64,000 nt of DNA, taken from sequence record OZ035772.1. One strand, 5' to 3'. The translations under genes were made by a program, and so were the position numbers. Shown piece after piece: positions 56,783 to 59,376 of the stretch (positions are counted from its first letter, which is position 1; every line of letters starts with the position of its first letter). Source of the stretch: Felixounavirus LF82P3. The notes beneath the pieces are model-generated. The model saw only the letters and a program-made list of their open reading frames with translations. It ran no database searches and had not been told where the DNA came from.

Positions 56783-58198
56783 ATGAGCGAATTATTCAAA
56801 CATGCGCACCTTCATGCAGGTCGAACTGAAAATGGTGCTGTAAACCATACTTCATCAATGTCTGCTCTTGTGGACTTTTACAAAGCTGCTGGTTCGAGCC
56901 GTAGCAATGTAGAAATCTTACCAGACTTGTTCTACAAAGCTTTGCGTGAGGATGTTGATGTTGCAGTTCGTATTTTGCTTCATATGCGAGATGTACGAGA
57001 AGGTATGGGTGAGCGTAAAGCCTTCAGAACTGTTTTGCTTCAAGCAATTGAAGATAAAGTTTTAGAGCCTACACAGGTTCTTCGCATTATGGATAAGATT
57101 GCAGAACTTGGTCGTTTTGATGACTTCAAAATCTTCGTAGGTACTCGTTTCGAGACAGATGCCTTCAAACATTTAGAAGCGGCATTACTAGACCCTGCAA
57201 CAGCAGGTTTGGCAGCTAAGTGGTTACCACGAGTCAAACCACGTCATAAACAGTTTGTAAAACGTTTCTGCAAATTTGCCAACCTGAGTGAGAAAGAGTA
57301 CCGCACACTGTTGTCTGCACTATCTGATACAGTTGAGCAAAAAATCTCTGCTAATGAGTTTGGTAAGATTGACTACAGTAAGATTCCTTCACTTGCTGCT
57401 GCACGTTACCAAAAACTGTTTAACCGTAAAGATGGAGAACGCTACAAAGCTTACATCGAGTCCTTATCAAAGGGTGAGGCTAAGATTAATGCTGGTGCTG
57501 TTTACCCATACGATGTGATTAAATCTGTCAAGCATGGTAATGCAGATGTTGCTAATGAGCAGTGGAAAGCACTACCAAACTGGATGGCAGAAGGTGAAAA
57601 CATCTTATGTATGACTGATGTTTCAAGCTCAATGTCTTGGGTGAATTTTGGCTCCATTACTGCTCTTGATATTGGTGTATCACTTGCCTTGTATGTAGCA
57701 GAACGCAATACAGGTTGCTTTAAGGATGAGTTGATGGTTTATTCAACAAACCCTCACTTCATCGAACTGAGTGGTGATTTACGAAACCGTCATCGTCAGG
57801 TGATGCGACACGTTGAATATGGCTCAACCAACTTACAAGCAGCTTTTGACCGCATTCTTGAGATAGGTAAGAGAAACAACTTGACTCAGGAAGATATGCC
57901 AAGTAAGCTTATCATCTTCTCCGATATGGAGTTCAATCAGGTTGATGGAGCTAACGGTCGTACAAACTTTGAAGCAATTCAGAGCAAGTACAAGAAAGCT
58001 GGATATGAGATGCCACAACTGGTATTCTGGTACTTAGCAAACCGTAATGGTACTTGCGAAGTGTCTGTTAAGGATAACGGTGTAGCAATGGTATCTGGTT
58101 TCTCTCCAGCCACTTTAAAAGCTCTGCTTGGTGGTGAGAAGTTTGACCCAATCAGCGTAATGCTCAAAGCAGTAATGATTGACCGCTATATCTGGTAA
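56783..58198 (+). CDS. von Willebrand factor A (MIDAS) domain protein with alpha-helical N-domain; candidate Ro60/Rsr-like (TROVE + vWA) protein
   Basis: MIDAS DxSxS in ILCMTDVSSSMSW; second vWA motif LIIFSDMEFNQ; immediately upstream of tRNA/ncRNA cluster. Confidence 0.5.
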   Translation: MSELFKHAHLHAGRTENGAVNHTSSMSALVDFYKAAGSSRSNVEILPDLFYKALREDVDVAVRILLHMRDVREGMGERKAFRTVLLQAIEDKVLEPTQVLRIMDKIAELGRFDDFKIFVGTRFETDAFKHLEAALLDPATAGLAAKWLPRVKPRHKQFVKRFCKFANLSEKEYRTLLSALSDTVEQKISANEFGKIDYSKIPSLAAARYQKLFNRKDGERYKAYIESLSKGEAKINAGAVYPYDVIKSVKHGNADVANEQWKALPNWMAEGENILCMTDVSSSMSWVNFGSITALDIGVSLALYVAERNTGCFKDELMVYSTNPHFIELSGDLRNRHRQVMRHVEYGSTNLQAAFDRILEIGKRNNLTQEDMPSKLIIFSDMEFNQVDGANGRTNFEAIQSKYKKAGYEMPQLVFWYLANRNGTCEVSVKDNGVAMVSGFSPATLKALLGGEKFDPISVMLKAVMIDRYIW

Positions 58199-58216
58199 AA
58201 AGTTTTAAAAAGGGTA

Positions 58217-58245
58217 TTGACAATGTGTTTGATACCCTTTAATAT
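58217..58245 (+). promoter_or_regulatory. Strong sigma70-type promoter (TTGACA-17-TAATAT) for the tRNA cluster
   Basis: Consensus -35, 17-bp spacer, near-consensus -10. Confidence 0.65.
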
Positions 58246-58307
58246 GTTCTACATAGAAACGAAACGAGAGCTTTTCTAAGATACTGAAAAATATTTTAAA
58301 AAAGTTC

Positions 58308-58337
58308 TTGACAATCACTAAAAAATAATGTTAAAGT
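58308..58337 (+). promoter_or_regulatory. Second candidate promoter (TTGACA, extended -10 TGtTAAAGT)
   Basis: Consensus -35 with weaker -10 carrying a TG extension. Confidence 0.4.
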
Positions 58338-58363
58338 GGTTACATAGAGTTTGAAAAGTTTAT

Positions 58364-58440
58364 CTCTGTTTAGCTCAGCTTGGTAGAGCGTTCCGTTTGG
58401 GGCGGTAAGGCCGGAGGTTCAAGTCCTCCAACAGAGACCA
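58364..58440 (+). tRNA. tRNA-Pro (anticodon TGG)
   Basis: Hand-folded cloverleaf: 7-bp acceptor CTCTGTT/AACAGAG, T-arm GGAGG-TTCAAGT-CCTCC, encoded CCA. Confidence 0.75.
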
Positions 58441-58447
58441 AATTAAT

Positions 58448-58525
58448 GTTCCAGTAGACAAAATGGTAAAGTCACCACTCTTTCAAAGTGGATATCTGAG
58501 GGTTCAAATCCCTTCTGGAACGCCA
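58448..58525 (+). tRNA. tRNA-Glu (anticodon TTC)
   Basis: Acceptor GTTCCAG/CTGGAAC, anticodon arm CCACT-CTTTCAA-AGTGG, T-loop TTCAAAT, CCA. Confidence 0.7.
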
Positions 58526-58532
58526 GTTTTGA

Positions 58533-58606
58533 CAGAAGACCAATTACAGCAAACTTAATCTTATTCATCTGAAGGTAAATCGGACAAAGAAGAGATTTGG
58601 TCTGGT
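58533..58606 (+). ncRNA. Hairpin-bracketed element E1 (candidate structured small RNA)
   Basis: 5' CAGAAGACC...TACAGCAAA and 3' ...GGTCTGG form closing stem; family of 4. Confidence 0.35.
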
Positions 58607-58616
58607 CATTAAGAAT

Positions 58617-58693
58617 TGCGGGTATAGAGAAAGGGCGTCTCACATGTCTCATTAGCATGGTATCGGCAGGTTCGACTCCTGCACCCGCCTCCA
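58617..58693 (+). tRNA. tRNA-Met (anticodon CAT; elongator vs initiator vs Ile-lysidine unresolved)
   Basis: Anticodon arm CATGT-CTCATTA-GCATG, T-arm GCAGG-TTCGACT-CCTGC, CCA; position 1-72 mismatched. Confidence 0.65.
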
Positions 58694-58698
58694 AATTT

Positions 58699-58768
58699 AC
58701 AGAAGACCGTTTACAGCAAAATTGAATGAAATTTTTAGCGGAAAAAATTGAAAGATACGGTCTGGTAA
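58699..58768 (+). ncRNA. Hairpin-bracketed element E2
   Basis: ACAGAAGACCGTTTACAGCAAA ... ACGGTCTGGTAAT. Confidence 0.35.
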
Positions 58769-58778
58769 TACTAAACAT

Positions 58779-58855
58779 GGTTAGGAAGCACATAAGGTAT
58801 GTGCGGTCGCCTGTTAAGCGAATGGCACAGGGTTCGAATCCCTGACTAACCGCCA
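58779..58855 (+). tRNA. tRNA-Asn (anticodon GTT)
   Basis: D-arm GCAC/GTGC, anticodon loop CTGTTAA, T-arm CAGGG-TTCGAAT-CCCTG, CCA. Confidence 0.75.
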
Positions 58856-58924
58856 AATTTAGGAGAGAAGCGATTGCTCACCGATTTGTAAGGTGCAAGT
58901 CCTTAGCCTGAATAGAAATTAAAT

Positions 58925-59012
58925 GTGTCGTTATCCCGTAGATGGTAGCGGTGGGGACTGTAAATCCCTTGTCATTGAGACTCGGTAGGTTCGACTCCTA
59001 CACGGCACACCA
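58925..59012 (+). tRNA. tRNA-Tyr (anticodon GTA), long variable arm
   Basis: Acceptor GTGTCGT/ACGGCAC, anticodon arm GGGGA-CTGTAAA-TCCCT, ~15-nt variable arm, A73, CCA. Confidence 0.75.
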
Positions 59013-59017
59013 ATAAA

Positions 59018-59095
59018 GGTTATGTAGTTTAATTTGGTTAAAATACTCCCCTGTCACGGGAGATGATGAGGGTTCAAATCCCTTCGTAACCGCCA
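59018..59095 (+). tRNA. tRNA-Asp (anticodon GTC)
   Basis: Anticodon arm CTCCC-CTGTCAC-GGGAG, T-arm GAGGG-TTCAAAT-CCCTT, CCA. Confidence 0.75.
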
Positions 59096-59155
59096 ATTTT
59101 GAGAGGGCTATTTAGCCCCTCCCTTAAAGGGTTCTTACGAGTATCCTTTAAAGGA

Positions 59156-59232
59156 GCAGAAGACCAAATACAGCAAGAACGTATGAAATTTCAAGCCAAT
59201 TTAATTTTGAAAATTTAAAACTTGGTCTGGCT
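59156..59232 (+). ncRNA. Hairpin-bracketed element E3
   Basis: GCAGAAGACCAAATACAGCAAGAAC ... CTTGGTCTGGCTC. Confidence 0.35.
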
Positions 59233-59242
59233 CAACAAATTT

Positions 59243-59376
59243 ACAGAAGACCGTTTACAGCAAAACTTAAACAATCTATTTCTCCGGTAAAGAAAAGGCG
59301 AAGGTTCGATTCCTTCACTCGGCAGAGGTCGAGTTGGTGTAATGGTAGCACTTAAGATGATAAACAACGGTCTGGT
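59243..59376 (+). ncRNA. Element E4: hairpin-bracketed RNA with an internal circularly permuted tRNA-like module (Y RNA / YrlA-like candidate)
   Basis: E2-type ends enclose T-arm GAAGG-TTCGATT-CCTTC, acceptor-3' ACTCGGC, loop AGAG, acceptor-5' GTCGAGT (7/7 pairing incl. one G-U), D-arm GTG-TAATGGTAG-CAC; no anticodon arm, no CCA. Confidence 0.45.

Follow-up and report, generated by a model that had tools for sequence, protein, structure and literature searches.

Animals and bacteria are well known to possess Ro60-Y RNA particles, but what these do in bacteria and phages is poorly understood. The bacterial form, described in Salmonella and Mycobacterium among others, combines Rsr, a helical ring joined to a vWA domain, with the RNAs YrlA and YrlB, which are encoded within 4 kb of the protein gene on the same strand (PMC4201824; RF02553). 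In both RNAs the two ends pair, and a short conserved motif comes next on the 5' strand; YrlA additionally contains V, T, closed acceptor-like and D arms, in this order, a tRNA-like domain that is absent from YrlB. Chen et al. (2014) identified YrlA beside TROVE-annotated Ro60 genes in 254 bacteria and 22 phages (PMC4201824). Here, we analyzed a locus of Felixounavirus LF82P3, contained in a stretch of 64,000 nucleotides (record OZ035772.1; hereafter, the window), in which an open reading frame (ORF) for a 471-residue protein with a vWA domain is followed by four RNA-like elements, E1 to E4, interspersed within a tRNA cluster. The best explanation of this locus is that the ORF encodes a highly divergent protein of the Ro60 type, predicted to form a helical ring capped by a vWA domain with a MIDAS (metal ion-dependent adhesion site), and that E1-E4 are its candidate cognate Y-like RNAs. 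We estimate at about 0.8 the probability that they make up a Ro60-Y RNA-type particle, in which the ring docks on a conserved closing module of the RNAs and the variable interiors provide the function. Such a system had been put forward as a candidate in an initial annotation of the sequence, and it is now supported by the protein fold, by a conserved and covarying RNA module, and by the physical linkage of this module to the gene across many unrelated phages.

Known phage Ro60 systems, such as those of the cluster C mycobacteriophages ET08 and McGee and of Thermus phage phiLo (phiRo60-Yrl1/Yrl2; PDB 9KOP/9L5Y), consist of TROVE proteins and RNAs with a CGAA motif. The structure of the phiLo protein, which binds two such Y-like RNAs as well as the host PNPase, was reported by Hu et al. 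(2025; PMC12135203), and jumbo-phage ROT/TROVE proteins that have a tRNA-like partner are mentioned by Iyer et al. (2021). Closer to the present locus, gp130 of the Felixounavirus Bas63 was characterized in a 2024 PhageMaP preprint as a structurally Ro60-like protein that counters the Ppl defence, is encoded "directly upstream of a stretch of tRNA genes" and works alone when moved to T7 (PMC11482910). Because gp130 is described as a Ro60-like gene directly upstream of Felixounavirus tRNA genes, the ORF of the window is almost certainly its ortholog, a judgement based on the preprint's description and not on its sequence. The authors speculated that some of the annotated Bas63 tRNAs are Y RNAs and left the RNAs unidentified (PMC11482910); our candidates, E1-E4, are different from the annotated tRNAs. 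Similarly, in a study of a Listeria phage homolog, for which Rsr was the top HHpred match, abundant transcripts encoded nearby were speculated to be Y RNAs (PMC12282133). Given the precedents of Chen et al. and Hu et al., and given that adjacency to tRNA clusters is common in the family, a phage-encoded Ro60-Y RNA pair inside a tRNA cluster is less unusual than the initial annotation supposed.

The locus is ~97% identical to that of Salmonella phage Felix O1, in which the ORF corresponds to ORF42 (NP_944857), named "RNA-binding protein" in RefSeq and "vWFA protein" or "hypothetical" in other records. In the AlphaFold2 model (pLDDT 89.2, pTM 0.89), the protein is all-helical up to approximately residue 265 and then adopts an alpha/beta vWA fold, with the helical ring spanning residues ~1-265 and the vWA domain residues ~270-455, the helical-repeat ring and C-terminal vWA domain that define the Ro60 fold. 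The top 10 Foldseek matches of this model are all Ro60, Rsr or phage Ro60 proteins, aligned over the full length. The MIDAS signature DxSxS...T...D is complete, with D279, S281, S283, T349 and D381 invariant among 50 homologs (40-90% identity), bearing out the helical N-terminal domain and the C-terminal vWA domain with DVSSS that had been read from the translation. At the sequence level, the protein matches the Pfam families DUF2828 (9.8e-30) and DUF7788 (4.7e-44), and VWA_2 weakly, below threshold (hmmscan, E<=1); it is assigned to PHROG 850, annotated as "RNA-binding protein". Searches against PDB sequences, both single-sequence and profile-based, returned nothing significant, the MIDAS region of Ro60 appearing at E 0.6 at best. 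The family is present in 709 of the 50,697 GenBank phage records, with hosts that include Escherichia, Mycobacterium, Salmonella, Vibrio, Listeria, Staphylococcus, Campylobacter, Enterococcus and Bacillus.

Some observations on the protein stand apart from its fold. The Listeria phage homolog was detected in purified CKA15 particles (20 peptides, 57% coverage; PMC12282133), and the homolog of Erwinia phage pEa_SNUABM_12 is annotated as a "putative structural protein"; the protein may thus be packaged and injected. The GenBank record GU169904.1, labelled "Staphylococcus phage SA1", contains at 145270-146682 a copy of the Felix-type gene with 98% identity, which suggests that this record is chimeric or contaminated by a Felix O1-like phage.

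Downstream of the ORF lie 26 tRNA genes, all on the + strand, and E1-E4 are located among the first of them (Table 1), 0.33-1.2 kb 3' of the ORF and on its strand, well within the 4-kb distance typical of Y RNAs. E1 and E2 each fill a tRNA spacer exactly, and the long gap between tRNA-Asp and tRNA-Lys houses both E3 and E4. The initial annotation had placed E4 directly downstream of the ORF; it is in fact 1.05 kb away, past two promoter-like sites, six tRNA genes and E1-E3. The sequence CAGAAGACCNNTTACAGCAA occurs four times in the 64 kb, at 58533, 58700, 59157 and 59244, exclusively on the + strand, against an expectation of 0.11. All four minimum-free-energy folds have a common frame, consisting of an outer helix of 4 bp, three bulged nucleotides (AGA) on the 5' strand and an inner helix of 7-8 bp (AGACCNN/NNGGUCU), after which the 5' side continues as single-stranded (U)UACAGCAA and the 3' strand is followed by G. 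In E1, for instance, the outer helix (58530-33/58605-08) and the AGA bulge are followed by the inner helix (58537-43/58597-603) and by ACAGCAA at 58546-52. All four elements thus display the paired ends and bulged stem of Y RNAs. The interiors of E1-E3 are short and unremarkable, and the individual folds of E1-E4 are modestly better than those of shuffled sequences (z -1.2 to -1.8).

Table 1. Predicted features of the Ro60-like gene and its neighbourhood in the window
Feature	Position	Strand	Evidence and remarks
Sigma-70-like promoter TTGACA-18-TAAAGT	56711..56740	+	5' of the Ro60-like gene; consensus match alone
Ro60-fold protein (predicted), 471 aa	56783..58198	+	Pfam DUF2828+DUF7788; PHROG 850
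MIDAS motif DVSSS (D279, S281, S283)	57617..57631	+	Invariant alignment columns; T349 and D381 complete the site
Two sigma-70-like promoters (58217-58245; 58308-58337)	58217..58337	+	Head the tRNA/E-RNA cluster; consensus match
E1, candidate short Y-like RNA	58530..58608	+	tRNA-Glu/tRNA-Met spacer; motif, fold, covariance model 25.7 bits, relatives
E2, candidate short Y-like RNA, common closing module	58697..58768	+	tRNA-Met/tRNA-Asn spacer; covariance model 23.8 bits
E3, candidate short Y-like RNA, common closing module	59154..59233	+	Outer helix GAGC/GCUC; motif, fold, relatives
E4, candidate YrlA-type Y-like RNA	59241..59378	+	Fold, covariation, covariance model 82.6 bits, relatives

The exact fit into tRNA spacers, together with the poor conservation of the E1-E3 interiors and the modest folding scores, would also be expected if E1-E4 were mere spacers or processing signals of a polycistronic tRNA transcript, such as RNase entry sites or folding insulators, and their adjacency to the protein gene were coincidental. 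Most other tRNA spacers of the window, however, are devoid of the module, and the distribution of the module in other phages makes this explanation quite improbable. We collected 75 diverse IMG/VR loci, with proteins 39-48% identical, along with loci of named phages, and scanned 82 non-Felix loci with a descriptor of the module (a stem of at least 7 bp, 0-2 nt, [AUG]C[AC]GCA[AU], 12-260 nt, and the complementary strand followed by G). The descriptor matched 125 times on the gene strand, compared with 14 times on the opposite strand and 17.4 times in shuffled sequence, and 62 of the 82 loci had at least one match. The matches comprise 95 distinct stem pairs, mostly starting with AG and ending with CU-G, and the motif reads ACAGCAA in 64 and UCAGCAA in 29 of the gene-strand matches. 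For the 117 extragenic matches, the distance to the gene is at most 700 nt in 93 cases and at most 150 nt in 43. Among the named positive phages, there are four to five elements in Klebsiella phages KP13-16, two in Campylobacter phage CPX, three each in Staphylococcus phage S-CoN_Ph7 and Bacillus phage Tsamsa, and three in Listeria phage AG20, where they are found behind a promoter just upstream of the gene. In one lineage, the gene is followed by a 60-nt element, an element of ~290 nt and an intrinsic terminator. Mycobacteriophage Rumpelstiltskin, whose protein is 34% identical, has three elements directly 3' of the gene, the first of which reads UGGACGC-UA-ACAGCAA...GCGUCCA-G, the middle one containing T, closed acceptor and D arms and the third being short. 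In a marine lineage, the syntenic first elements downstream of the gene have compensatory stems (GGUUCC/GGAACC, GGUUCU/AGAACC, GGUUUC/GAAACC and GGCUUC/GAAGCC), a comparison that is independent of any selection by pairing.

The gene adjoins a phage tRNA cluster in Felix, KP13-16, CPX, AG20 and Tsamsa. Among the metagenomic loci, 21 of 60 have a tRNA gene within 3 kb, co-oriented in every case, and 39 have none, many of the latter still bearing elements. In the L011/L013/L017 lineage, in S-CoN_Ph7 and in Rumpelstiltskin, the module is located a few hundred nucleotides from the gene, on the same strand, with no tRNA gene within 3 kb. The elements thus track the protein gene even without tRNA genes nearby, which argues against their being mere tRNA-processing spacers.

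E4 is the most elaborate of the candidate Y-like RNAs. Its closing module (59241-55/59366-78), with ACAGCAA at 59257-63, encloses a V hairpin (59279-59295, in the minimum-free-energy fold), a T arm (59300-59316; GAAGG-UUCGAUU-CCUUC), an acceptor-like hairpin of 7 bp closed by AGAG (59317-59334) and, after UG, a D arm (59337-59351; GUGU-AAUGGUA-GCAC). There is no anticodon arm and no CCA. This is the topology recognized in the initial annotation, where a T arm, a closed acceptor stem and a D arm were placed between the two strands of a closing stem, and its comparison with YrlA also holds: the order V, T, acceptor-like stem, D is that of YrlA (PMC4201824), as are the UUCRANY T-loop and the GG of the D-loop. 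The 15:48 Levitt pair looks non-canonical by inspection (A15/C48). All four elements are present in Mooglevirus and Suspvirus relatives (Sf14, ESh21 and SUSP1), in which the gene is 77-86% identical at the DNA level. Across these Ounavirinae, the closing module is nearly invariant and the interiors of E1-E3 have diverged, and the acceptor-like hairpin of E4 has been swapped from ACUCGGC/GUCGAGU to ACACGU/GCGUGU.

The design of E4 is common to 15 RNAs of 108-136 nt from nine distant lineages. Their RNAalifold consensus contains the closing stem, the T arm and the lowest part of the acceptor-like stem, and 12 of its 13 pairs show compensatory changes. For a 17-pair structure, 93.4% of the cells are paired, compared with 62% in shuffles and 40-46% with slid partners, the percentage being inflated by the choice of the 15 seeds partly by a pairing descriptor; this choice matters less for the slid controls, the strand controls and the synteny-defined orthologs. 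The covariation score is 0.83, against 0.23 for shuffles and 0.12-0.17 for slid partners, and the closing helix is 100% paired, with changes on both sides at all five pairs. A covariance model built from the 15 RNAs yields 140 matches at E<=1 in 673 kb, all of them on the gene strand, including full-length matches outside the seed at 50-68 bits. In mycobacteriophage McGee, the same model finds the canonical YrlA locus, which immediately precedes the TROVE-type Ro gene, at 32 bits.

These data bear on the possibility that E4 is a tRNA gene, either decaying or circularly permuted (a pseudogene, or a gene whose maturation involves a circular intermediate, as in red algae), and that E1-E3 are repeats spread by recombination or homing endonucleases. 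The T-arm part of E4 matches the Rfam tRNA model at 22 bits, neighbouring tRNA spacers of FelixO1 contain homing HNH genes, and several records have "tRNA-OTHER/pseudo" annotated here. In the circularly permuted tRNA genes of Cyanidioschyzon merolae, as in E4, the T arm and the 3' strand of the acceptor precede its 5' strand and the D arm; these genes, however, keep the anticodon arm and are matured into real tRNAs, whereas in E4 the anticodon arm is wholly absent and a conserved module of the protein-docking type, bearing a non-tRNA motif, is found instead. Moreover, the arrangement of T arm, acceptor-like stem and D arm within a closing stem is kept at 30-50% protein identity with every helix different in sequence, and the closed acceptor-like stem changes by compensatory substitution. 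Because compensatory changes maintain the fold both in close relatives and in phages that are very distant, a decayed tRNA remnant is ruled out, and we regard this explanation as a whole as highly improbable.

A variant of the tRNA-like design was encountered in two loci (L054 2734-2834 and L059 2757-2853), where the closing module surrounds D, anticodon and T arms and the acceptor stem is absent; ARAGORN calls these RNAs tRNA-Thr and tRNA-Asn(att). They represent a second, non-permuted design of the same RNA family, with a Yrn1-like arrangement that recalls the Yrn1/YrlA dichotomy of Chen et al.

Several results weigh against a Ro60-Y RNA system in the window. The protein matches neither TROVE (PF05731) nor vWA_Ro60 (PF25045) in Pfam (hmmscan, E<=1), in contrast to the control McGee gp233, which matches both (9e-50 and 4e-54, respectively). 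In hhalign comparisons, the N-terminal domains are unaligned with either a 28-sequence TROVE alignment or McGee gp233, the alignments being shallow (Neff ~2.9). On the RNA side, neither GNCGAAN0-1G nor GGUCCGA is found in E1-E4, CGAA being absent, and the Rfam models Y_RNA (RF00019) and YrlA (RF02553) have no match in 58150-61450, at the gathering score or at E<=10, so that the covariance-model check proposed in the initial annotation came back empty. The descriptor has no match in 20 of the 82 loci (it is known to miss true elements), and in Vibrio phage ValKK3 there is no element within 4 kb of the gene. To these should be added the seed choice noted above and the finding that gp130 rescued T7 on a Ppl host without phage RNAs (PMC11482910), from which it follows that at least the anti-Ppl activity is independent of E1-E4.

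Of the profile comparisons proposed in the initial annotation, the one with the vWA domain stood, our 50-homolog alignment matching that of TROVE proteins over this domain (89.6% probability, E 2e-6), and the one with Pfam TROVE did not. Since the profile match reaches the vWA domain and misses the N-terminal domain, the protein is best described as having a predicted Ro60 fold and yet forming a separate sequence family: it belongs to TROVE/Ro60 by the structural definition and not by that of the sequence models. Outside the MIDAS region, it has no detectable sequence similarity to the Ro60 proteins of ET08, McGee and phiLo. The same divide runs through the mycobacteriophages, where the "Ro-like" proteins of cluster C are of the TROVE+vWA_Ro60 type and those of cluster L, like the window protein, of the DUF2828+DUF7788 type. 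The E RNAs, likewise, are YrlA-like in architecture and fall outside the YrlA definition by motif and by Rfam model. At the position equivalent to the classical motif, 93 of the 125 phage elements have ACAGCAA or UCAGCAA, and the YrlA of McGee, with the same layout, has GCCGAGAG where the DUF2828-linked RNAs have ACAGCAA. The Rfam YrlA model appears to be narrow, for it scores the McGee YrlA at 36 bits with a gathering score of 69; the Rumpelstiltskin element, like E4, is unmatched. A further difference from the Rsr-Yrl loci is that the four RNAs of the window are interleaved with functional tRNA genes. In the open literature, we found no paper identifying these RNAs, the ACAGCAA module or its distribution, noting that the 22 phages of Chen et al. 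may include some of the DUF2828 type, and Rfam has no family for the module. Phage Ro60-Y RNA pairs as such are already known; the novelty appears to lie in identifying the candidate cognate RNAs and in the distinct motif that these have.

The rescue of T7 by gp130 alone is also what one would expect if the RNAs were linked to the protein chiefly as regulators or antidotes, acting as titrating decoys or cis autoregulatory sites, and the protein countered defence without RNA. Y RNAs gate Ro60, which fits this possibility as well. In addition, in at least eight related loci, a mini hairpin of 32-40 nt (AGAAUUU-NN-ACAGCAA-...-AAAUUCU-G) abuts the Shine-Dalgarno sequence of the DUF2828 gene, as at L010 2954-2986, L016 1764-1795 and L022 2859-2890, and upstream of the start codon in L036, L042, L062, L080 and L095. 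Its position suggests that, in these phages, the protein may repress its own translation. Such an element is, however, absent from the 5' untranslated region of the Felix window, and simple titration would need no elaborate, conserved tRNA-like interiors. We consider a chiefly regulatory role unlikely, and it overlaps with the Ro60-Y RNA particle without excluding it.

As for how a Ro60-Y RNA particle would operate, the host-type promoters at 58217 and 58308 could drive the E RNAs together with the phage tRNAs. The promoter-like sites at 56711, 58217 and 58308 have perfect TTGACA boxes, and that at 58217-58245 is located within a 12-bp hairpin immediately 3' of the stop codon. Because the E RNAs sit exactly in tRNA spacers, ordinary processing of the tRNA 5' and 3' ends would release them, and we infer that they would then be stable and bound by the protein. 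The docking site would consist of the paired ends (outer helix, AGA bulge and AGACCNN helix), the single-stranded ACAGCAA and the G after the 3' strand. By analogy, this closing module is a probable protein-binding site because it occupies the place of the bulged helix and the GGUCCGA/GNCGAA motif recognized by Ro60 in classical Y RNAs. The variable interiors would serve as effector modules. In E4, the tRNA elbow formed by the T and D arms and the closed acceptor-like stem might recruit or decoy tRNA-binding factors; alternatively, E4 might tether or gate a host exoribonuclease, for which the Rsr-Yrn1-PNPase complex of Deinococcus radiodurans (RYPER), where the Y RNA tethers the ring to the exoribonuclease, provides the template, a contact with PNPase being proposed here by analogy. 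The downstream roles could include surveillance or repair of phage and host tRNAs or other RNAs, exoribonuclease capture, the decoying of defence nucleases and counter-defence.

The surroundings of the candidate RNAs contain other structured stretches. Abutting E4, an RNA-like element of ~146 nt (59377-59522) has a near-perfect closing stem of 22 bp (z -5.9); it is kept in Sf14, SUSP1 and ESh21, where the long stem has three to four compensatory pairs and the interior has diverged, and it has no match in Rfam. At 60226-60312, a tRNA-like sequence, called neither by ARAGORN nor by the Rfam tRNA model, combines a long acceptor stem, a 5-bp stem with a 9-nt loop (CUUCCAACA), a T arm and a 3' CCA, and could be an odd suppressor-type or degenerate tRNA. 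The spacers 61076-61171, 59096-59156 and 58856-58924 fold significantly better than shuffles (z -3.8, -3.0 and -2.6, respectively) and contain no ACAGCAA module. Sub-threshold Rfam matches to permuted transfer-messenger RNA (tmRNA; 31.8 bits, gathering score 47) and tmRNA (14 bits), at 59702-59885 and 59817-60008, respectively, overlap tRNA-Ile and the next spacer and are probably driven by the tRNA part. The ORF upstream of the Ro60-like gene (56327-56698; 123 aa, DUF5681, PHROG 4114, basic N-terminus) was considered as a third component and rejected, as its co-occurrence with the gene is confined to Ounavirinae and one relative (L009). Elsewhere, the neighbours of the gene include RtcB and an HD hydrolase in AG20 (L087), T4-type RNA ligase 1 with Band_7 and a metallophosphatase in L096, the peptidyl-tRNA hydrolase PTH2 in L095 and, among loci such as L095 and L094, an NAD-salvage cluster. 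The "highly transcribed regions" of CKA15 could not be mapped onto the AG20 elements; the most abundant of them (CKA15_059-061) probably represent a different upstream region that does not contain the motif.

Tentatively, and with less than even confidence, we envision a broader picture, in which DUF2828 Ro rings and "stem-ACAGCAA" RNAs constitute a distinct, ancient and very widespread class of phage ribonucleoproteins with swappable interiors (permuted tRNA mimics, acceptor-less tRNAs and plain hairpins), spanning hosts from Proteobacteria, Firmicutes, Actinobacteria and Campylobacterota and serving as a general tool against RNA- or tRNA-targeting immunity or for exoribonuclease hijacking. 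If this is true, the anti-Ppl phenotype of the presumed ortholog would find an explanation, as would the frequent company of the gene with phage tRNA clusters and RNA-repair genes.

Our analysis provides a concrete set of candidate RNA partners for a protein family of hundreds of sequenced phages, covering model and therapeutic types such as Felix O1, the A511/P100-like Listeria phages, and Campylobacter, Staphylococcus and mycobacterial phages. The putative recognition motif, ACAGCAA beside a covarying stem, differs from the classical CGAA and can be used for mutagenesis, RNA family annotation and structural work. Several unannotated or "pseudo-tRNA" stretches within phage tRNA clusters would thereby be explained. 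With the Ppl-countering phenotype of the likely Felixounavirus ortholog, the purpose of Ro-Y RNA systems may become approachable in a tractable E. coli phage, and a widespread, unexplained phage gene would turn into a defined and experimentally tractable protein-RNA system.

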